Below are positions 4,969 through 44,800 of a DNA stretch of 52,462 nt, in pieces (the stretch's first letter is position 1; each line of letters begins with the position of its first letter). The DNA comes from an uncultured Erysipelotrichales bacterium (lineage in GTDB: Bacteria > Bacillota_I > Bacilli_A > Erysipelotrichales > Coprobacillaceae), in the NCBI GenBank assembly GCA_964596105.1, contig CAZQRT010000002.1:1-52462 (forward strand), in the 5' to 3' direction. The translations under genes and the position numbers were made by a program. The notes below the pieces were generated by a model. It saw nothing but the letters and a program-made list of their open reading frames with translations, did no database searches and was not told where the DNA came from.

Positions 4969-5910
4969 ATGTTTAATCAAATTTGGGAAATTTTAAAAAA
5001 CGCCCGGCACATCTATCTGTACCGCCATATCAACGCGGATTACGACGCGCTTGGCGCGCAGTACGGGCTTTGGGCTTTACTTAAAAATCTGGCCCCCGTC
5101 AGCATTCTCGGCACGGAGCCGGAAGATTTAAAAGCGCAGATGAAACTGCCGGAAGTTTCCCGGCAGGAACCGGAAGGATCCCAGGGCGAGGTCGCGGTGG
5201 TGCTCGATACCGCCAACCAGGCCCGCATCGACGGCCAGGGCTTTAAGCGCTGTGAAACGCTCATCAAGATTGATCATCACGAGATCGTCGATGAATTTGG
5301 TGATTTTCGCGTTGAGAAACCGGAAGCCGGCAGCACCTGTGAGATCATCACCGCCATGGCCGAGATTCTCGGTTTAAACATAACCGCCCCGGCCGCTGCC
5401 TTTTTATACTTTGGCATGATTGGCGATACCGGCCGCTTTCTGTATGCGCAGACAAGCCCCCTGACCCTGAGGATGGCGGCGCGCCTGCTGGAAACCGGCA
5501 TCGACATCAGCCAGATCTATGAGGCCATGTATCTGCGCGACCGCCATACATTGGCTAGTGAGCGGTATGTTTTAAATCATACCCGCTACGCGAACGGCGT
5601 GGCTTACTTTATCCTGGAAGAAGAGGAACTGGAACAGTTAAACCTGACCCGGGAACAGGCCAGCCGCATGGTGGACCTGTTAGGAAATGTCCGGGAATAT
5701 CACGTCTGGGCGGCGGTCACGTATCAAAAAGAAAGCGGCAAGTACCGCGTCTCTTTGCGCAGCCGCCATGTCGATGTCGCCAAAGTCGCCGCCAGTTTTC
5801 AAGGCGGCGGGCACCGCCTGGCGAGCGGCGCGACCTTAAACAGTTTAAACGAACTGCCGTTATTGATCGCGAAGTTAGAGGAGGCCGTCAAAAATGAGAT
5901 TTCAATATAA
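4969..5910 (+). CDS. nrnA: DHH/DHHA1 family phosphoesterase (NrnA-like oligoribonuclease/pAp phosphatase)
   Basis: ATG 4969 follows AAGGGGTG. DHH motifs are present (HINADYDALG, VVLDTAN, KIDHH, GDTGRF, GGGH). The size is ~313 aa, as for NrnA. Confidence 0.75.
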   Translation: MFNQIWEILKNARHIYLYRHINADYDALGAQYGLWALLKNLAPVSILGTEPEDLKAQMKLPEVSRQEPEGSQGEVAVVLDTANQARIDGQGFKRCETLIKIDHHEIVDEFGDFRVEKPEAGSTCEIITAMAEILGLNITAPAAAFLYFGMIGDTGRFLYAQTSPLTLRMAARLLETGIDISQIYEAMYLRDRHTLASERYVLNHTRYANGVAYFILEEEELEQLNLTREQASRMVDLLGNVREYHVWAAVTYQKESGKYRVSLRSRHVDVAKVAASFQGGGHRLASGATLNSLNELPLLIAKLEEAVKNEISI

Positions 5911-7537
5911 TACCTATTATCCCCGCCCGCGTTTTCAAATGAGAAGAAAAGACACGAAATGGGCGGTCCCGATCGCTTTAGCGGTTGTGGTGTTGCTGTT
6001 TGTGGTCCTGGAGTATTTCTTGTTTATTCCCGTCACCATTCGCAACCCCAATTTCCTGCTTTTTCTCGCCCTTCTGATCTTAGTTTTTGACGCCCTGGTC
6101 TTCATTTTGAAAAGCGGCTTTCAAAAATGGCAGCGTTACCTGCTGTATTTTGCGGGACTTTTGTTTGTCATCGTGATCGCGGGCTCTTTGATCAGCGCGC
6201 CAATATTTCACGCGCACAAGTACCAGCAGCAGCTGGCGATGAACGAGGACGCGGATTTTTATGAGGATATCACCGCCATCAGTTTCAACCAGATTCCCGT
6301 CGTCGACCGCGACAGCGCCACCCGCCTGGGCGACCGCAAAATGGGCGAAATCATGGACTACGTCTCGCAGTTTGATGTCTGGCCCGACTATACCCAGATT
6401 AACTATCACGGCCGTCCCGTCCGCGTTACCCCGTTGGGTTACAGCGGCCTGATCAAGTGGTTCAACAACTTCCGGGAAGGTTTGCCGGCTTATATCATCG
6501 TGGATATGGTCAATCAGGAGGCGGATATCAAGCGTCTCGATGAGAAAATGAAATACTCCGAATCCGACCTGTTTTTCCGCGATGTCAGACGCCATCTCTT
6601 TACGCGATATCCAACCCGGATGTTCGCGGAAGTCTCCTTTGAGATTGACGAGGAGGGCATCCCTTATTATGTCGCCCCGGTTTATGAGTACAAGATCGGC
6701 CTGTTTGGCGGCAAAGATATCGTCGGGGCGGTCCTGCTCAACGCGATCAACGGTGATACGCAGTACTATCCGATTGACGAGGTGCCGACCTGGCTGGACC
6801 GGGTTTATCCGGAAAGCCTCGTCGTCAGTCAGCTCGATAACTGGGGCAAATACCAGAACGGCTTTTTGAATTCCTATTTCGGCCAGCGCGGCGTCTTGAA
6901 GAGCACCGACGGCTATAACTATATTACCATCGATGATGATGTCTATCTCTACACCGGGCTGACTTCGGTTCTCGCCGATGAGTCCAATGTCGGCTTCGCT
7001 TTGATTAACCTGCGCACCAAAGAAGCCAAGTTCTACAACATCCCGGGCGCTGAGGAGTACTCCGCGATGGAGTCGGCGATGGGCCAGGTTCAGGATTTGC
7101 ACTATCAGGCGACTTTCCCGATTTTGATTAATTCCGGCGGGGAGCCGACGTACTTCATGGCCCTGAAGGACAGCGCGGGCCTGGTGAAGCAGTATGCCTT
7201 TGTTTCCGTCACTAACTACAATATCGTGGCGACCGGGGTCAGTGTCGCGGAAGCCCAGAAAAATTACTTCCAGGCTTTAAGCGCGGCCGGCCAGGCGGTT
7301 ACCGAAGGCGAGTTAGTCACGGCGCAGGGCACGGTGACGAGGATCCAGAATGTCGTCGTGGAGGGCAATACCCGGGTTTACTTCAGCCTTGGCGACGGCA
7401 AGGTTTATATCGCCAGTGTCACCCTTGACGACCGTCTGCCGCTTTTGACCGCGGGCGATCAGGTGGAGGTTTCGTATTATCAGACAGAGGGCACCAGCGT
7501 CAGCGTCCAGAGCATCGCGTTTTTAAGTGAGGAGTGA
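5894..7537 (+). CDS. large membrane-anchored protein of unknown function (N-terminal TM bundle plus ~430-aa extracytoplasmic domain)
   Basis: ATG 5894 sits 9 nt after AGAGGAGG and overlaps the nrnA 3' end. Three to four TM helices occupy aa ~20-110, followed by a long soluble domain. Its stop codon lies inside the SD of the response-regulator gene. Confidence 0.7.
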   Translation: MRFQYNTYYPRPRFQMRRKDTKWAVPIALAVVVLLFVVLEYFLFIPVTIRNPNFLLFLALLILVFDALVFILKSGFQKWQRYLLYFAGLLFVIVIAGSLISAPIFHAHKYQQQLAMNEDADFYEDITAISFNQIPVVDRDSATRLGDRKMGEIMDYVSQFDVWPDYTQINYHGRPVRVTPLGYSGLIKWFNNFREGLPAYIIVDMVNQEADIKRLDEKMKYSESDLFFRDVRRHLFTRYPTRMFAEVSFEIDEEGIPYYVAPVYEYKIGLFGGKDIVGAVLLNAINGDTQYYPIDEVPTWLDRVYPESLVVSQLDNWGKYQNGFLNSYFGQRGVLKSTDGYNYITIDDDVYLYTGLTSVLADESNVGFALINLRTKEAKFYNIPGAEEYSAMESAMGQVQDLHYQATFPILINSGGEPTYFMALKDSAGLVKQYAFVSVTNYNIVATGVSVAEAQKNYFQALSAAGQAVTEGELVTAQGTVTRIQNVVVEGNTRVYFSLGDGKVYIASVTLDDRLPLLTAGDQVEVSYYQTEGTSVSVQSIAFLSEE

Positions 7538-38360: not shown

Positions 38361-38424
38361 ACATTTTCTTATAATAAACTTCTAAACGTGATATAATGAA
38401 ATAAACAATAGTTTTGAAGAAAGG

Positions 38425-39312
38425 GTGACGGCAGTGATCACATTAAAAAATCAGTATCTGGCAGTTGATTTACATCCTAAAGGAGCGGAAATTCACCGCA
38501 TCATCGGCCAGAAGGATCAAATGAATTACATGTGGAAAAGGGATGCTTCCCTGTGGGCCAACAGCGCCCCGATTCTTTTCCCGATTGTCGGGGCTTTGCG
38601 CAATGACACCTGTGTTATCGAAGGCAAAGAGTATCATATGACGCAGCACGGGTTTGCCCGGCACCAGGAGTTTGATACCGAGAAAGAAGGCGACACGAAG
38701 GTGACGTTCACCTTGCGTTCCAATCCCGAAATCGCCAGGCAGTATCCTTATCTATTCGCGTTGCGCGTGATTTACACGCTGGAGGAGTCCAGCCTGGTTT
38801 GTCATCTCGAAGTAGAAAACGAGGATGACAAACCGATCGTTTTCTCGCTGGGCGGCCATCCCGCTTTCGCCTGCCCGTTTTATGAAAATGAGTCCAGTAA
38901 TGACTATTATCTGGAGTTTTCGCAAAATGAGACGCTGGAACGCAAGATCATCGATGTCGAGAAGCGCGGCATGTCGCGTAAGACTGAGCCGTTTTTAGAC
39001 AATGAGCGAAGGTTCTTTGTCCGCCAGGCGATGTTTGACCGCGACGCGATCGTCGTCAAAAACTTCCAAAGCGAGTCGGTCGCTTTAAGAAGTCTGAACC
39101 ATGACAAAGCCATTATTTTCCATATGGAGAACTTTGAGCATCTCGGCTTATGGGCCAGCAAACATGTCGGCGGTCTCATCGCGATTGAGCCGTGGATCGG
39201 CCACGCTGATTATGTGGATTTCACCGGAAGCTTCGCTGAGAAAGAGTGCATCCGCACTTTGCCGGTCCATGAAGTATTCAAGGCCTGCTTTAAAATTGAG
39301 ATCGCGCAGTAG
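38425..39312 (+). CDS. aldose 1-epimerase family protein (LacX/YphB-like)
   Basis: The N-terminus has KGAE...W....W....PILFPIVG......Y.M.QHGFAR, typical of the LacX subgroup. The start is GTG 38425 or GTG 38434. Confidence 0.75.
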   Translation: MTAVITLKNQYLAVDLHPKGAEIHRIIGQKDQMNYMWKRDASLWANSAPILFPIVGALRNDTCVIEGKEYHMTQHGFARHQEFDTEKEGDTKVTFTLRSNPEIARQYPYLFALRVIYTLEESSLVCHLEVENEDDKPIVFSLGGHPAFACPFYENESSNDYYLEFSQNETLERKIIDVEKRGMSRKTEPFLDNERRFFVRQAMFDRDAIVVKNFQSESVALRSLNHDKAIIFHMENFEHLGLWASKHVGGLIAIEPWIGHADYVDFTGSFAEKECIRTLPVHEVFKACFKIEIAQ

Positions 39313-39323
39313 GGGGCGGGCGC

Positions 39324-39836
39324 ATGGATTTTAACGAGGTGATCCGCGAGCGTTATTCCTGCAAGCGTTTTTCCAACAAGCTGCTGGCAAAAGAAAAGTT
39401 ACAGGCGATCCTGGAGGCCGGCCGGCTGGCTCCTACCGCCAAGAATCTCCAGGAGCAGCATATCTACATCGCCCAAAGCGAAAAAGCTTTGGAAATAATC
39501 GACAGCGTGACGCCATGCCGTTATCAGGCCCCTTGCGTACTGGTGGTGGCGTATGATCAAAGTCATGTTTTCACCTATCCCGGCCAGCGCTATCAGTCCG
39601 GGGCGGAGGACACGGTCATTGTCGCGACCCACATGATGCTCGCGGCGCAAAACGCCGGCGTGGACAGCTGCTGGATCAACAACTTTGATCCCGATGTCTT
39701 AAAAGAGCGTCTCCAGCTGCCGGAAAATGAGAAGATCGTGATGCTTCTCGATCTCGGCTACGCGGATGAGGGCGCGGGGCCTTTGCCTAATCACTCTAAA
39801 AGGAAATCTTTGGAAGAAACAGTGACTTGTATTTAA
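39324..39836 (+). CDS. nitroreductase family protein
   Basis: The N-terminus I.ERYSCKRF plus LEAGRLAPTAKN is the nitroreductase fold signature. The protein is 170 aa. Confidence 0.8.
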   Translation: MDFNEVIRERYSCKRFSNKLLAKEKLQAILEAGRLAPTAKNLQEQHIYIAQSEKALEIIDSVTPCRYQAPCVLVVAYDQSHVFTYPGQRYQSGAEDTVIVATHMMLAAQNAGVDSCWINNFDPDVLKERLQLPENEKIVMLLDLGYADEGAGPLPNHSKRKSLEETVTCI

Positions 39837-39857
39837 GCGGCTTTGGCCGCTTTTTTA
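39837..39857 (+). terminator. rho-independent terminator
   Basis: The hairpin GCGGC-TTTG-GCCGC is followed by T6. It merges into the polypyrimidine tract. Confidence 0.6.
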
Positions 39858-39957
39858 TTTTTTCTTCTTTTCTTCTTCTTTTTTTTACTTCTTCTAGTTT
39901 TTTTCTTTTTTTTTACTTCTTCATTCTTTCTTTTTTTCTTTTTCATTTTTTTCATTA
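39851..39957. repeat. ~105-bp polypyrimidine (T/C) tract on the plus strand with internal repeats
   Basis: The stretch is almost exclusively T and C. The unit TTTTTTTACTTCTTC occurs twice (39881-39895 and 39908-39922). TTTTTCAT occurs twice (39939-39946 and 39948-39955), and TTCTTCTT iterations are present. Confidence 0.9.
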
Positions 39958-39981
39958 TAAAAAAAAGCCCGTCCGGGCTTT
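39958..39981 (-). terminator. rho-independent terminator of the EIIB-ROK gene
   Basis: The minus strand reads AAAGCCC-GGAC-GGGCTTT followed by T8. Confidence 0.75.
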
Positions 39982-41362
39982 AGTGATGACTAGCCAGCAC
40001 ACACAGCGTCATCTCTCCGATGAGCATGTATTCTTTCAGGCTGGAAATGCGTTTGATTTCCGGCTGGTATTCTTTCGGGATCATTTTGGAGACGCCCTCT
40101 AAAATGGCCTTCTCATCAACCTGGTTCGGGGTGGAGTAGAGGACTGCCTCGGGACCCAGTAAGGAGATGATGGAAGTGATGACTTTGGTGAGGACATCGG
40201 TGGTGCCTTCGGCGCTGCCGGTCATGGTTAAATAGTCTTCTTTAAGATTGAGCGGCATGTACTGGACTTCCCCGGCGACATTGTGATAGCCGCGGATCAG
40301 CTGGCCGTTAAAGATGCTGCCCACTCCCGCGTAGCTGGATTTGGGCTGGAAGATGAAAGACAAAGACTCATATTTTCCCTGCGACACATAGATGCCGACC
40401 GCGATCGAGTTGACGTCATTATCGAGATAGAACGTTTTATTGTATTTTCTTTTCAGCATGCCCAAAGCGTCAAAGTTGTACATATTGGCCATGGACAAGT
40501 AAACCTTGCCGTCGTTGATGATGCCCGGCATCGATATCCCGATGAGTTCGATATCGGGATGAGAGACGAAGACGACATCGAGAATATCGCAGATGTCCTC
40601 AAAGTCAATCCGCGTTTTCACAACTTCCTGGTCCATTAAGATCGCGTTATCCTGGTCGTAAAGACGGTAGTCGATGATATAGCGGGTATGCATGTTGATG
40701 ACGGACAGGACGAGAATCTTCTCATGATGCGAGAGCTTTCTTTTTAAAGACAGCGGGGTGGAATCTTTGTGGTGCTGATCATTCAGATCGCGGATAAATC
40801 TTAACAGCTCGACACAGTCGTAGCGGGCGAAAACAGCTGAAGGAATGACCGCGATCTCCACATCCGGATATTTTTTCTCGAGCTCAGCCCGAAGATAAGC
40901 CACCTGCGGGGCCAGAAGGACAATGGTCATGCCTTTAATGCGGCTGTCGATATGACTGATCGAGGAGGCGCTAAAGTGGAAGGGCACATCAAACAACTCT
41001 ACTGTCTCATTTAAAGAAACGGCGAAGTTGCTGGTGGTATAGCCGCCCGAGCAGCATAACAGCACCTGGGTGATATTTTTCTTGTTTGTTAAACATTCGA
41101 CCATTTCCTGATACAGGGCCACGGCATGATTCAGGGTGCGCATTTGAAAATGCAGATAAAAATCGTTACTGCCGGTGGTTTTATCGGTAATGATTAATTC
41201 GATGATGTGGTTCGGGTTAAATGTGATGCGCCCCACGCTGGAAGGCGTCTCAAGGACAATATCTTCGTCATCTTCGGAAACTGTGACTAGACTGTCATAA
41301 GGCTGATTTAAAATCCACTGATGGAAAACAGACATGTAAATATCCTGCAGAAATTCATCCAT
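39980..41362 (-). CDS. three-domain fusion: unknown N-terminal domain + PTS EIIB (lactose/cellobiose type) + ROK-like sugar-kinase-fold domain (degenerate)
   Basis: Residues ~97-190 (VLLCCSGGYTTS ... IVLLAPQVAY ... IAVIPSAVF) parallel cellobiose-type EIIB and retain the phospho-Cys. Residues ~215-460 carry ROK blocks (IGISMPGII.DG, YLDNDVNSIAVG, AGVGSIFNGQLIRGYHNVAGEV). The N-terminal DxGGT loop is replaced by SVINMHTR and the CxCGxxGC zinc motif is absent. Confidence 0.7.
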   Translation of the reverse strand: MDEFLQDIYMSVFHQWILNQPYDSLVTVSEDDEDIVLETPSSVGRITFNPNHIIELIITDKTTGSNDFYLHFQMRTLNHAVALYQEMVECLTNKKNITQVLLCCSGGYTTSNFAVSLNETVELFDVPFHFSASSISHIDSRIKGMTIVLLAPQVAYLRAELEKKYPDVEIAVIPSAVFARYDCVELLRFIRDLNDQHHKDSTPLSLKRKLSHHEKILVLSVINMHTRYIIDYRLYDQDNAILMDQEVVKTRIDFEDICDILDVVFVSHPDIELIGISMPGIINDGKVYLSMANMYNFDALGMLKRKYNKTFYLDNDVNSIAVGIYVSQGKYESLSFIFQPKSSYAGVGSIFNGQLIRGYHNVAGEVQYMPLNLKEDYLTMTGSAEGTTDVLTKVITSIISLLGPEAVLYSTPNQVDEKAILEGVSKMIPKEYQPEIKRISSLKEYMLIGEMTLCVLASHH

Positions 41363-41378
41363 ATTCTCACCGCCTGTA

Positions 41379-41407
41379 ATTATAGTTTACAAAAAACAGG
41401 ATGATAA
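41379..41407 (-). promoter_or_regulatory. promoter of the EIIB-ROK gene (TTATCA-17-TATAAT)
   Basis: The minus strand reads TTATCATCCTGTTTTTTGTAAACTATAAT. Confidence 0.55.
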
Positions 41408-41425
41408 AACAAGATAATGAAACCG

Positions 41426-41444
41426 CTTTTCTAATCTAGAAAAG
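41426..41444. promoter_or_regulatory. perfect 8-3-8 inverted repeat CTTTTCTA-ATC-TAGAAAAG (candidate operator)
   Basis: It lies in the divergent intergenic region between the EIIB-ROK gene and mutT. No U-tract follows it on either strand. Confidence 0.4.
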
Positions 41445-41451
41445 TTTAACG

Positions 41452-41480
41452 GTGCAAAATCACCCGCGGCGTGTTATAAT
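41452..41480 (+). promoter_or_regulatory. mutT promoter (GTGCAA-17-TGtTATAAT)
   Basis: The extended -10 lies at 41472-80 and there is a weak -35. Confidence 0.5.
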
Positions 41481-41498
41481 CCCATGCGGTGAGGAAAA

Positions 41499-41900
41499 AT
41501 GAAAACCGTTCACGTCGCGGCCGCGATCATCAAAAAGGAAAACAGGATTCTCATCGCGAAAAGAAAACGCGGTGAATTCGCCGGATTATGGGAGTTTCCC
41601 GGGGGAAAACTGGAAGCCCAAGAAACCGCAGAGGAAGCCTTAAAAAGAGAAATACAGGAAGAGATGGAACTGTGTATCGAGGTTCAGGATTATCTGATGA
41701 CTGTGGAATATGACTATGAGACGTTTCATTTAAGCATGGACTGCTTTATGTGCGCGCTAAAAGACACAAAGTTTCATCTCCACGACCATACCGCGGTGCG
41801 CTGGCTTGATCTGGAAAATCAGGAAGAGATCGCCTGGGTGCCGGCCGATGTTCAGGTCTACGCGGCCGTGAAAAACAGATATTTAAAAAACGGACAGTAG
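41499..41900 (+). CDS. mutT: NUDIX hydrolase, MutT-type (d)NTP pyrophosphohydrolase
   Basis: The Nudix box is GGKLEAQETAEEALKREIQEEMEL and is preceded by LWEFPGG, as in 8-oxo-dGTPases. Confidence 0.8.
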   Translation: MKTVHVAAAIIKKENRILIAKRKRGEFAGLWEFPGGKLEAQETAEEALKREIQEEMELCIEVQDYLMTVEYDYETFHLSMDCFMCALKDTKFHLHDHTAVRWLDLENQEEIAWVPADVQVYAAVKNRYLKNGQ

Positions 41901-41916
41901 CTGTCCGCTTTTTTTA
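41885..41916. terminator. bidirectional rho-independent terminator
   Basis: The hairpin CGGACAG-TAG-CTGTCCG is flanked by A6 upstream and T7 downstream. It lies between the convergent mutT and helicase genes. Confidence 0.8.
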
Positions 41917-44751
41917 ACCATGAACGATGTAGTCATAAAGATCTTCCGCGACCGGGGTTTCCAGCTGATAGTGAATCTCAAAAGCCGGCTTGCCGGTTTG
42001 CGGCATGATGACCGGCTCCGGTTTTCCTATGGCCCGCATCTCGCCCAGGAAATAGAACTCCTTCGCCTCTTTGTCATCTTTGTTCTTGCGCACAAACAGG
42101 TAGATTTTGACATCCCGGTATTCCGGTTCGCTTTTATAGATGCGAATGGCATCCGCGCTGGTCACGGCGCGATTCGTTTTCGATAAAGCCACCAGCTCGC
42201 CGCGGTTCAAAAAACGGTCCTCGTAAGCGATGGCGTCACTTTCTTTATCGTAATTGATGAAGACCGGCAGCGTTTTCGTCTCGTCATTGTAAAGGTAGCC
42301 GCCGATGCTCTGGGCGTTGATGTTTTTCTTCCAGTTTAATAACAGACAGACATCCTCATATGTATATTTCTGACCTAAGACGAAGGCCGTGTCGCGGTAG
42401 TGATGCTGATACGATTTGTGAAAGTTAGCCATGGCATAGGAGATAAGTTCTGAAATCATCTCAGAAAACGAAGTCTCTTCAAGCATTTCCTCAAACTTTG
42501 GATGGATGAACCACTCATCATCTTTACTGACAAGAAAAACGCAATTCTGGTATTTGGGCTGATCCATGGTTTTCGCGAACTGATTGGTCAGATTGCCATA
42601 CACAGACTGCAGGACGGTGTCATTCACCTCATAGTCATGCAGCTGGGAAACTAACTGAGATTTGATATGGTCCTGTTTTTCTAAAAGCAGCTTTAACACA
42701 AGCCATTCGTGCGGGCGTTTGCCGGCGCTGAGCTTTTTTGACAGAAACCTGATGACCTCGGCTTTTTCCGGGGATAAACGAACATTATACTCCGGCTCTT
42801 TCGCGACTAAAAAATGATAGTAAGAGCCCCATTTCATGATGAATTTCGCGGCGTCGATTTCCCCGTAGCGGTCAAAATCAAGCAGAGACGGAATATGGCC
42901 CAGCTTAAACTTCAAATTCTGATAGGCGTCGTCAAGAAACTTGGCCTCCATGGTATTGGCCCTGTCAATCGCCTGGAAGATTCGCGCTTTGGAAATCTCA
43001 TCGAAATGGATACTGGAATAGCCGGGAATCATCTGCGCCTCCTCGCTGATGAAGCGCCGCATGTTGTCCTTGTTGTAGGAGCGGTCGCCCGACAGCGCGA
43101 CGGGAATGAGAAAGTTCTGGGTGTAATTGCCGATAAAATCCAGCACCATGACATAGTCTTTGCCGGGATACTTGCGCAGCCCCCGGCCCAGCTGCTGAAT
43201 AAAGATGATCGCGCTTTGCGTCGGCCGCAGCATGATCACCTGATTGATTTCCGGGATGTCAACACCCTCGTTGAAGATCTCCACGGTGATGATATAATCC
43301 AGGGGATCGGGATTGTCGTGATCCTTCGTCAGGCGGGCGATACAGGCTTCCCTTTGGGCCTGACTACTGGAACCGTCCAGAAACACAGTGCGCCAGCCTT
43401 TCTGATTGAAAAGCTTCGCCAGTTCTTTTCCCTCGTCTTTGCGGCTGACAAAAATCAGCCCTTTCACGCGCGGGCCGCTGTAACCGTAGTATTCCGCCTG
43501 CCGCATGATGTAGTCCGCCCGCTTTTCTCTGACTAAGGTCTGAAAAGCGGCAAAACCGGTCCTCTCATCATAAGTTTTCTCATCCAGGGTCAGATCGGTG
43601 ATGCCGTAGTAGTGGAACGGGCACAAGAGATCTTCCCGCAAAGCGGCCTGCAGGCGGATCTCGTAGACGATATTGTGATCAAACAGACTGAAAATATCGA
43701 AACCGTCGGTCCTTTCCGGACTGGCCGTCATGCCCAGCCAGAAATCCGGCTGGAAATAAGCCATGATATCGAGATAGCTGCCGGCCCCGGCGCGGTGGAC
43801 CTCATCGATGATGATCGTATCAAAATGATCCCTGGGAAAGTGCGCCCGGATGTCCGGACGGGCCATGCTCTGCACCGTGGCGAAGATAAAATCGGCGTCA
43901 TAGTCATGACGGGAGCCGGAAATTCTTCCGTAAGTTCTCGTGTTTAAAAAGATTTTCTGATAAGTTTCCATGGCCTGCCTGGCGATCTGCTCGCGGTGCA
44001 CGAGAAACAGCATTCGTTTAGGCATATACGTGCGCAAGGCGAACGCGCTGGCATAGGTTTTGCCGGTGCCGGTCGCCGAAATGAGCATCGCGCGATGCTC
44101 CCCGCGCCTTCTTAAAGCCTGAAAGCTGGCAATGAAATCGGTCTGCATTTTGTTTGGAGTGAGAACCGGACGGGCTCTCTGTTTCACCTGCCGGCCGTGA
44201 ATCAGGCTGACCGACTGATAGTAGAGGCGGGTGTAATCGTAGCGGACATCCTCATAGGAAACAGAATTCGGGGAATTCCACAACCGCTCGAACTCATCGT
44301 TGATCCGCTTCGCGAACGGATGCTCTTCGCCAAGGTTCATCCCGGCATTCCACTCCTGGTTGCTGCTTAACGCGCTGGCCGTCAGATTCGAACTGCCGAC
44401 GATGATATGAAAGGCGCCGGGGTAGCGGAAGATGTAGCCCTTGGTGTGAAATCCGTCATGAGGCGTGCTCTGATACATTTTCAAAGAGATGTTTTTCAGT
44501 CCCGCCAGTTTATCCAGGGCTCTGGGGTCACTGAAGGACAGGTAGTCGGTCGTCAGAATCCTTCCCGGGACGCCCTTTTCCTCCAGCTCCTTGAAGACGC
44601 CAAGCAGCGGGGCCAGGCCCGAGGCGCTGATAAAGGCGACCGTTATATCAAAGGCCTGGCAGGCGCTTAATTCTTTCATCAGGGCGCTTAAAACCTTGAT
44701 GCCGTGCCGGTACTCATTGACCAGTAAACGAAACCGGGCGGTCTCTTCCAT
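41914..44751 (-). CDS. PLD-family nuclease / SF2 (ResIII-DEAH) helicase / DUF3427-like C-terminal domain fusion protein
   Basis: ATG 44751 sits 8 nt after AGGAGG, and the track GTG at 44760 overlaps the SD. The N-terminal HxK motif is GFHTKGYIF...VGSSNLT. The helicase has Walker A SATGTGKTY, motif II IIIDEVH, motif III MTASP and motif VI QQLGRGLR. The C-terminal ~190 aa (GGY...LPVFINY...IYLFVRKNK...FYFLGE) resemble DUF3427 as I remember it. Confidence 0.8.
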   Translation of the reverse strand: MEETARFRLLVNEYRHGIKVLSALMKELSACQAFDITVAFISASGLAPLLGVFKELEEKGVPGRILTTDYLSFSDPRALDKLAGLKNISLKMYQSTPHDGFHTKGYIFRYPGAFHIIVGSSNLTASALSSNQEWNAGMNLGEEHPFAKRINDEFERLWNSPNSVSYEDVRYDYTRLYYQSVSLIHGRQVKQRARPVLTPNKMQTDFIASFQALRRRGEHRAMLISATGTGKTYASAFALRTYMPKRMLFLVHREQIARQAMETYQKIFLNTRTYGRISGSRHDYDADFIFATVQSMARPDIRAHFPRDHFDTIIIDEVHRAGAGSYLDIMAYFQPDFWLGMTASPERTDGFDIFSLFDHNIVYEIRLQAALREDLLCPFHYYGITDLTLDEKTYDERTGFAAFQTLVREKRADYIMRQAEYYGYSGPRVKGLIFVSRKDEGKELAKLFNQKGWRTVFLDGSSSQAQREACIARLTKDHDNPDPLDYIITVEIFNEGVDIPEINQVIMLRPTQSAIIFIQQLGRGLRKYPGKDYVMVLDFIGNYTQNFLIPVALSGDRSYNKDNMRRFISEEAQMIPGYSSIHFDEISKARIFQAIDRANTMEAKFLDDAYQNLKFKLGHIPSLLDFDRYGEIDAAKFIMKWGSYYHFLVAKEPEYNVRLSPEKAEVIRFLSKKLSAGKRPHEWLVLKLLLEKQDHIKSQLVSQLHDYEVNDTVLQSVYGNLTNQFAKTMDQPKYQNCVFLVSKDDEWFIHPKFEEMLEETSFSEMISELISYAMANFHKSYQHHYRDTAFVLGQKYTYEDVCLLLNWKKNINAQSIGGYLYNDETKTLPVFINYDKESDAIAYEDRFLNRGELVALSKTNRAVTSADAIRIYKSEPEYRDVKIYLFVRKNKDDKEAKEFYFLGEMRAIGKPEPVIMPQTGKPAFEIHYQLETPVAEDLYDYIVHG

Positions 44752-44771
44752 GGCGCTCACCTCCTGGTTTT

Positions 44772-44800
44772 ATTTTACCCGCTGCGCTAGCAGCTGGCAA
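44772..44800 (-). promoter_or_regulatory. promoter of the PLD-helicase gene (TTGCCA-17-TAAAAT)
   Basis: The minus strand reads TTGCCAGCTGCTAGCGCAGCGGGTAAAAT. The spacer contains the palindrome GCTGC-TAGC-GCAGC. Confidence 0.65.

Follow-up and report, generated by a model that had tools for sequence, protein, structure and literature searches.

The gene described here lies in a 52,462-nucleotide stretch of DNA from an uncultured Erysipelotrichales bacterium (contig CAZQRT010000002.1), the whole of which we call the window. Judged by sequence, its 945-residue product is a SauUSI-family ATP-dependent Type IV restriction endonuclease, a stand-alone enzyme of innate immunity that would act against incoming DNA carrying C5-modified cytosine. 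We put the probability of this reading at about 90%. The prototype comes from Staphylococcus aureus, and its architecture has been laid bare by biochemistry in 2011 (PMC3141236), a crystal structure in 2021 (PMC7913695; Protein Data Bank [PDB] code: 7CLG) and single-molecule experiments in 2025 (bioRxiv 10.1101/2025.10.16.682607). Architecture and family are known, and what the window adds to them is only one further, ordinary member. Two points are less routine: a conserved NUDIX partner gene, and a clade-wide replacement of tryptophan by alanine in the pocket that would hold the modified base.

The evidence for family membership is full-length. A PADLOC search, one of the checks proposed by the original prediction (an earlier reading of the letters alone), matched the protein to PDLC03658 (mREase_IV, "Type IV methyl-directed restriction enzyme") at E=7.7e-193, over profile positions 30-951 of 953. 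Among sequences of solved structures, the best match is SauUSI itself (7clg_A; E=9e-188, query residues 11-946 against residues 30-952 of the chain). Pfam profiles fall along the protein in the order PLDc_2 (2.9e-10), ResIII (2.8e-34), Helicase_C (3.2e-13) and DUF3427 (1.5e-75), upholding the phospholipase D (PLD), ResIII-helicase and DUF3427 assignments already made from short motifs. Those motifs (GFHTKGYIF...VGSSNLT, GTGKT, DEVH, TAS and QQLGRGLR) are all to be found in the translation. When the AlphaFold model of the full-length protein was compared with the PDB using Foldseek, the top match was again 7CLG (E=7e-55).

Other profiles and structure sequences also match, among them Type I R subunits, RadD, XPB, Hef and PbeA, but they cover only the helicase core or the PLD/helicase part and score far below their family cut-offs. 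EcoAI reaches 110 bits where 550 are required, PRK11448 65 of 729, RadD 88 of 720 and XPB 17 of 610. Of the 24 PADLOC matches, the two highest-ranked are mREase_IV models, and next come partial matches to PbeA and to Type I systems over the PLD/helicase part. On these scores and this coverage, we rejected assignment of the protein as a Type I/III R subunit or as RadD/XPB. The same list bears on the antiphage architectures Hna, Nhi and Mokosh, with which the protein had been compared: none of the 24 models carries any of those names, and the analogies are unnecessary because PADLOC has a full-length mREase_IV model.

A restriction subunit would be the obvious reading of the ResIII match, together with the weak NCBIfam and PADLOC Type I R matches over the helicase core. 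The protein would then belong to a Type I, Type III or ISP-like system, its methyltransferase encoded elsewhere or lost, and would cut unmodified DNA. We find this scarcely credible. Not only are the matches partial, but the nuclease is of the PLD type, the C-terminus ends in an SRA-like reader of modified bases and the family has been demonstrated to be modification-dependent. Nor do the genes fit. Neither Mod, HsdM or HsdS nor any other specificity partner is encoded in the window, and a motif search of its 52 kb for DNA methyltransferases found none, with no open reading frame (ORF) bearing C5-methyltransferase motifs and DprA as the sole ORF with an NPPY motif. The earlier statement that the gene lacks any methyltransferase or specificity partner holds for the window, by motif and by domain search.

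What to call the gene

Public records (H1-H12 plasmids, P0028/P0031/P0037) call SauUSI-family genes only "DEAD/DEAH box helicase" or "DUF3427 domain-containing protein".

The generic public label is the reason the original prediction took the role of this architecture, and of the DUF3427 module, to be not established. It had in fact been characterized in the 2011, 2021 and 2025 studies of SauUSI. The annotation gap conceals a well-characterized family of restriction enzymes, and the proper label for the window gene is SauUSI-like Type IV restriction endonuclease. There is a practical side to this. Such an enzyme would hinder transformation of its host with Dcm-methylated plasmid DNA from Escherichia coli, as SauUSI does in staphylococci.

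Nuclease and motor

Residue numbers in what follows were counted along the 7clg_A alignment, in the 945-residue numbering; the count was checked against the SauUSI paper, whose residue identities it reproduces. In the PLD nuclease domain, H102, K104, N122 and E133 correspond to SauUSI H119, K121, N139 and E150, any one of which abolishes cleavage when changed to alanine (PMC3141236). All four are invariant in an alignment of 28 homologues. The superfamily 2 (SF2) helicase-like core that follows has its Walker A lysine at K231, within GTGKT, equivalent to SauUSI K255, the residue altered in the ATPase-deficient mutant K255A. Its DEVH box occupies residues 316-319, its TAS motif 342-344 and its QQLGRGLR motif 519-526. 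Invariance across the 28 closest homologues extends to K231, to the three DExH-box residues D, E and H and to the TAS of motif III; QQLGRGLR (motif VI) is retained as well.

A predicted reader of modified cytosine

The original prediction recognized the C-terminal domain as DUF3427-like and gave it ~190 residues. The Pfam match is longer, spanning ~274 residues (672-945 in the 948-residue translation). In the SauUSI work, the DUF3427 region corresponds to a coupler followed by an SRA-fold target-recognition domain for 5-methylcytosine (5mC) and 5-hydroxymethylcytosine (5hmC); the helical coupler runs from residue 618 to 805 and the target-recognition domain, of ~150 residues, from 806 to 953 (PMC7913695).

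Because confidence between domains was poor in the full-length model, the C-terminal 175 residues were modelled separately with AlphaFold2 and a homologue alignment, giving a predicted local distance difference test score (pLDDT) of 78 and a predicted TM-score (pTM) of 0.77. A fold search of this region had been another of the proposed checks. Its top PDB match is the target-recognition domain of SauUSI (TMq 0.67, root-mean-square deviation 3.0 Å, 152 columns), followed in order by AspBHI, KRYPTONITE/SUVH4 and SUVH6 with methylated DNA, MspJI, UHRF2-SRA with 5mC/5hmC DNA, TagI and AbaSI. All the matches listed are SRA-type readers of C5-modified cytosine. On this model, the module recognized as DUF3427-like is a reader of modified cytosine.

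How closely does the pocket resemble that of SauUSI? A docking model of SauUSI names six pocket residues, M829, Y831, F841, I842, D858 and W868 (PMC7913695), on the strength of docking rather than mutagenesis. Four of the six are kept in the predicted pocket of the window protein: a tyrosine (Y819 or Y821), F831, I832 and D845.

Several observations weigh against a SauUSI-type enzyme, and we set them down together. Identity to SauUSI is only ~34-39%. The full-length model has a pTM of 0.34, which is poor inter-domain confidence, and its global TM-score to 7CLG is ~0.2, a value that says little because of that same poor confidence. In the pocket, A855 replaces W868, the candidate stacking residue, and M829 aligns with glycine (HMMER) or isoleucine (MAFFT), the aligners differing because of an insertion in the loop. 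In the nuclease, the H-x-K-x4-E motif has arginine in place of its acidic residue (SauUSI E126).

The pocket changes are a property of the clade and not defects of the window copy. The position of W868 is alanine in 28/28 close homologues and in 81 of the 83 clade members; tryptophan is kept in the homologue from Streptococcus sp. DD13 (L002) and apparently also in a homologue of 35% identity (L090). The loop that bears M829 and Y831 carries an insertion of 2-3 residues (GGYLY, residues 816-821) with two invariant tyrosines. With the tryptophan replaced by alanine and the base-flipping loop extended, the exact sequence context read by the enzyme, and possibly its preference for one modification over another, are uncertain relative to SauUSI. 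The clade with the alanine and GGYLY may be a specificity subfamily.

Taken further, the same remodelling could mean that the fold is SauUSI's but the target is not, the reader having shifted from 5mC/5hmC in S-C-N-G-S to another context or to a bulkier or different cytosine modification. The invariance of the alanine and of the two loop tyrosines would be in keeping with such a shift, as would the finding that phage T4gt, which contains 5hmC, is restricted by proteins in which DUF3427 is joined to a nuclease domain of another kind (PMC6765204). We nevertheless consider it rather unlikely: the four pocket residues that are retained include the base-specific aspartate and the methyl-contacting tyrosine, the best structural neighbours of the reader domain are without exception 5mC/5hmC readers, and the docked pocket roles give the lost tryptophan no support from mutagenesis.

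The arginine at the E126 position raises a different question, whether the gene is a decaying or inactive relic, and the solitary copy in a core chromosomal region could be taken the same way. We hold this to be very improbable. The frame is intact over its full length, all the validated catalytic and ATPase residues are present, and plausible promoter, Shine-Dalgarno and terminator signals surround it. As for the arginine, the equivalent position varies among apparently intact homologues (R, K, Q, E, H or Y), and we rejected it as a sign of inactivation on that ground.

How the enzyme would work

What comes from our own analysis is family membership (from sequence), the survival of the catalytic residues and the reader fold; the steps below are carried over from SauUSI (PMC7913695; bioRxiv 10.1101/2025.10.16.682607), which has been shown to cleave 5mC/5hmC DNA in an ATP-dependent manner and to restrict methylated phage and plasmid. 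Dimerization of two protomers by way of their PLD domains would create a single, composite HxK active site. The SRA-like C-terminal domain would flip 5mC or 5hmC out of foreign DNA, and recognition of the modified base would activate the SF2 ATPase. One motor would then translocate 3'-5' on duplex DNA, while the partner's reader could re-bind the released site and so form a loop. Carried to distal sites, the nuclease would cut at preferred sequences or at DNA ends, and repeated cycles of translocation and cleavage would shred the DNA. The host's own DNA would be spared because it presumably lacks 5mC in the recognized contexts, which is consistent with the absence from the window, the only part of the genome covered, of any C5-methyltransferase ORF.

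Relation to known systems

The closest relatives by design are SauUSI (S. aureus USA300 SAUSA300_2431; PDB code: 7CLG), SauNewI and SepRPMcrR. Like them, the window protein has the order PLD nuclease, SF2 ATPase, helical coupler and SRA-fold DUF3427 reader; like SauUSI, it has no cognate methyltransferase (within the window) and is linked to a MutT/NUDIX gene. It departs from SauUSI in the changes already described (W868 to alanine, E126 to arginine, the insertion in the flipping loop and the ~34-39% identity), in its host, an uncultured Erysipelotrichales-like member of the Bacillota rather than a Staphylococcus, and in the placing of the NUDIX gene, which is downstream and convergent in the window but, by a published description, precedes sauUSI in S. 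aureus.

Further afield, McaZI, BwiMMI, EfaL9I and YenY4I are fusions of DUF3427 with a PD-(D/E)XK nuclease (PMC6765204). They share the modified-cytosine module and a role against phage and modified DNA, and are often found in defence islands, but their nuclease fold is different and they have neither the PLD nuclease nor the helicase motor, so they are presumably ATP-independent. BfiI and NgoAVII/CglI are restriction enzymes with a PLD nuclease. In them, too, the nuclease dimerizes into a single HxK active site, and NgoAVII and CglI also have an SF2 ATPase; unlike the window enzyme, they come with cognate methyltransferases and use B3-like domains to recognize specific unmodified sequences, and in NgoAVII and CglI the nuclease and the ATPase reside on two subunits. 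McrBC of E. coli is comparable in strategy, as an NTP-driven Type IV system that senses modified cytosine and cleaves distally after translocation, but its proteins are unrelated, an AAA+ GTPase (McrB) and a PD-(D/E)XK nuclease (McrC) on two subunits.

A NUDIX partner

The gene had been put forward as a single-gene defence module. The defence part of that proposal stands. The single-gene part overlooked a conserved neighbour, a convergent gene for a 133-residue MutT/NudG-like NUDIX hydrolase, directly adjoining the enzyme gene at its 3' end. At three of the four homologue loci first examined, a NUDIX_4 gene of ~130 residues lies directly 3' of the enzyme gene; at the fourth, the NUDIX gene is longer and 2 kb distant. 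The window NUDIX protein is 44-47% identical to the NUDIX proteins beside homologues of the enzyme and shares many residues with them beyond the Nudix box.

For a wider count, we built a hidden Markov model of the NUDIX protein and ran it on 87 SauUSI-like loci gathered by an alignment-based metagenome scan (a single-sequence query of genome contigs had given just two). At 90% identity, the loci fall into 45 clusters, of which 42 have sufficient downstream sequence. A related NUDIX gene is adjacent to the enzyme gene in 38 of these 42, on the same strand in 34 and on the opposite strand in four (the window among them); in another two it is within 2 kb without being adjacent, bringing the non-redundant loci with a NUDIX gene at ≤2 kb to 40/42, and in the last two it is absent. 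Examples are included in the table.

Three of the closest homologues of the window NUDIX protein (67-71% identity) are each convergent to a SauUSI-like gene, just as in the window. The enzymes with which they are paired are only 35-50% identical to the window enzyme. Two plasmids, from Hymenobacter (Bacteroidota) and Lactiplantibacillus, have the NUDIX gene directly upstream and co-directional. The pairing of enzyme and NUDIX gene thus persists in three arrangements (upstream, downstream co-directional and downstream convergent), across Bacillota and Bacteroidota. By the figures just given, the NUDIX protein is more conserved than its partner enzyme.

The linkage itself is not news. Xu et al. 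(2011) reported that sauUSI and no fewer than 60 of its homologues have a MutT/NUDIX gene linked to them, adding that the function of this gene "remains to be examined" (PMC3141236), and Bell et al. (2020) likewise remarked upon the linkage (PMC7641849). Our literature search found mentions of the NUDIX gene in just three papers (2011, 2012 and 2020) and an explanation of the linkage in none.

We tentatively propose that the NUDIX protein serves SauUSI-type systems as a second functional component, namely a dedicated pyrophosphohydrolase for the deoxycytidine triphosphates (dCTPs) 5-methyl-dCTP and 5-hydroxymethyl-dCTP. The idea draws on three things: the conserved linkage, the substrates of related enzymes and the MazG-like proteins encoded at some of the same loci. 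The best reported substrate of E. coli NudG (Orf135) is 5-methyl-dCTP, on which MutT is weakly active. Human DCTPP1 belongs to the MazG-like family, and one paper ties it to 5-methyl-dCTP metabolism. Two roles can be imagined. The first is immunity: by hydrolysing modified dCTP derived from shredded DNA, the NUDIX protein might prevent its re-incorporation into the host chromosome and so avert self-restriction. The second is a further arm of defence, in which phages that build their DNA from modified dCTP would be starved of it. If true, the proposal would account for a linkage noted in 2011 and still without an explanation, and also for the MazG-like (DCTPP1-type) pyrophosphohydrolases at some of the same loci.

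Three points tell against the proposal. NudG and MutT of E. coli resemble the window protein as small (~130 residues) MutT-type Nudix folds, but NCBIfam puts the latter between the two and under the curated equivalog cut-off of each (NudG, NF007834, far under at 88 bits against 156; MutT, TIGR00586, 85.3 against 97.9), so that it can be assigned to neither. Many organisms are inefficient at converting salvaged 5-methyl-dCMP into the triphosphate. Finally, Monk et al. (2012) obtained a nudix deletion in S. aureus Newman without any gain of transformability; the NUDIX gene is dispensable for restriction, since transformability was left unchanged.

At two of the homologue loci (L008 11435-13588; L097 5790-7870), next after the enzyme and NUDIX genes come one for an SLFN-like or "DNA/RNA helicase domain" protein and one for a MazG-like nucleotide pyrophosphohydrolase. 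The MazG-like proteins are a second, unrelated family of deoxynucleoside triphosphate pyrophosphatases found beside the pair.

The locus and its host

The window is a segment of core chromosome, with metK, dprA, topA, a GIDA-family gene, polC, infB and rbfA, and then recJ, apt and relA. The nearer neighbours of the enzyme gene encode NUDIX, ROK, nitroreductase, aldose epimerase and Post_transc_reg/RecJ proteins; this is a metabolic neighbourhood and not a defence island. The original prediction placed the gene in a non-syntenic stretch between the infB-rbfA and recJ-apt-relA blocks, and comparison with three distant relatives (L004, L005 and L006) shows a variable, accessory-looking interval there. 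All three keep the Post_transc_reg-recJ-apt-relA block, the interval upstream of Post_transc_reg is different in each, and both the enzyme and the NUDIX genes are absent from it in 3/3. L004 is the only relative locus that reaches far enough upstream, and there nusA-infB-rbfA lies ~6 kb from the block. As cargo in the interval, L005 carries, for example, a pair of IS605-type transposase genes and L006 a Tn916-type Xis/integrase.

Content of G+C drops to 0.45-0.49 across 38-43 kb of the window, compared with ~0.52-0.58 in the flanks. The best homologues of the enzyme that carry a source name (57% identity) are labelled Lachnospiraceae, a class other than that of the host. Elsewhere, homologues are found near Mrr, SLFN-like helicase, NERD, AIPR, TIR, SocA and HNH genes, or on plasmids. 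This context fits an accessory, horizontally moving defence gene.

Could the protein instead be a housekeeping nuclease-helicase of DNA repair, of the RadD or XPB-Bax1 type, working with the MutT-like NUDIX protein and RecJ? The adjoining NUDIX gene, recJ only 0.5 kb away and the matches of the helicase core to RadD, XPB and Hef invite the question, but we give the idea very little credence. Those matches stop at the helicase core, far below cut-off, while the whole protein, nuclease and reader included, matches SauUSI. The gene is missing from the same locus in three relatives, its closest homologues are named for another class and some homologues sit on plasmids. As for recJ, it is on the opposite strand, in a conserved recJ-apt-relA block that is present without the enzyme gene.

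The host of this SauUSI-type gene is, from its sequence, probably a deep-branching uncultured Erysipelotrichales-like member of the Bacillota. The best homologue of the window RecJ among 5.8 billion clustered proteins is just 50% identical, and its named matches are to Clostridiales bacterium CHKCI006, Coprobacillus and Erysipelotrichaceae. The enzyme itself, looked up by its exact sequence, occurs on none of the indexed public contigs.

Two smaller observations concern the interval itself. From rbfA to Post_transc_reg-recJ-apt-relA (window 38400-44800), it has the look of a variable hotspot. In L006, an Abi_2 gene stands directly past relA.

Reading frame and expression signals

An ORF tool returns an uninterrupted minus-strand frame, 41914..44760, listing GTG 44760 as the start. 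That GTG falls within the Shine-Dalgarno sequence, and the true start is ATG 44751; the product, ending at a stop codon at 41914-41916, is then the intact 945-residue polypeptide originally described. The gene's own Shine-Dalgarno sequence and a bidirectional terminator, also part of that description, are both present, the latter as a hairpin with T-runs on both strands that overlaps the 3' end and stop codon of the convergent NUDIX gene. Both neighbouring genes are on the opposite strand, and the transcript therefore holds the enzyme gene alone, which bears out the description of the gene as monocistronic.

The promoter fared less well. The TTGCCA-17-TAAAAT site and the palindrome in its spacer (GCTGC-TAGC-GCAGC, 44781-44794) exist as claimed, and the site, with 10 of 12 consensus matches, is the best in the region. 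However, promoter-like matches number six there against 3.9 +/- 2.0 in shuffled sequence, which is no enrichment, and the palindrome is no better than chance: a 5-bp inverted repeat with a gap of 3-8 nucleotides is expected in ~7% (about 1/15) of 17-nucleotide spacers. S-C-N-G-S sites, as created by the palindrome, occur once per 33 bp across the window. Given these two frequencies, we attach no weight to the palindrome, and we rejected it as an operator or as a self-target of the enzyme.

Table 1. Features of the SauUSI-like locus in the window, with NUDIX genes at homologous loci (coordinates of the latter refer to the locus named)
Feature	Coordinates	Strand	Evidence
Coding sequence, 945-residue SauUSI-family Type IV (modification-dependent) restriction endonuclease (by sequence)	41914..44751	-	ORF and start; 7clg_A; PADLOC PDLC03658
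PLD-family nuclease domain, residues ~33-158	44278..44655	-	Pfam PLDc_2
SF2 helicase-like ATPase/translocase core, residues ~198-526	43174..44160	-	Pfam ResIII and Helicase_C
DUF3427 region (second coupler subdomain plus target-recognition domain), residues ~669-942	41926..42747	-	Pfam DUF3427; SauUSI limits (PMC7913695)
SRA-like target-recognition domain, predicted, residues ~793-945	41917..42375	-	AlphaFold2 model; Foldseek
Shine-Dalgarno AGGAGG, 8-nucleotide spacer to ATG	44760..44765	-	Read from sequence
Sigma-70-like promoter TTGCCA-17-TAAAAT, predicted	44772..44800	-	Consensus matches
G+C-rich hairpin, shared terminator-like site of the convergent genes	41891..41907	.	Sequence
MutT/NudG-like NUDIX hydrolase gene, 133 residues, convergent	41499..41900	+	Pfam NUDIX_4 and NUDIX
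NUDIX gene, L007	10937-11335		
NUDIX gene, L008	11010-11405		
NUDIX gene, L009	10981-11367		
NUDIX gene, L090	6001-6396		
NUDIX gene, L092	6001-6393		
NUDIX gene, L094	3895-4296		
NUDIX gene, L096	2509-2901		
NUDIX gene, L097	2475-2900		

Other genes in the window

Two further genes deserve brief mention. The ROK neighbour (39980-41362, minus strand) encodes a 460-residue protein in which the ROK match covers only residues 234-372, leaving an N-terminal ~230 residues without a Pfam match; to the eye, this N-terminus carries a CCSGG-type motif, reminiscent of an EIIB domain of the phosphotransferase system (a putative likeness). At 5894-7537 on the plus strand, a 547-residue ORF without a Pfam match at E≤1e-5 stands among genes for glycoside hydrolase and two-component-system proteins.

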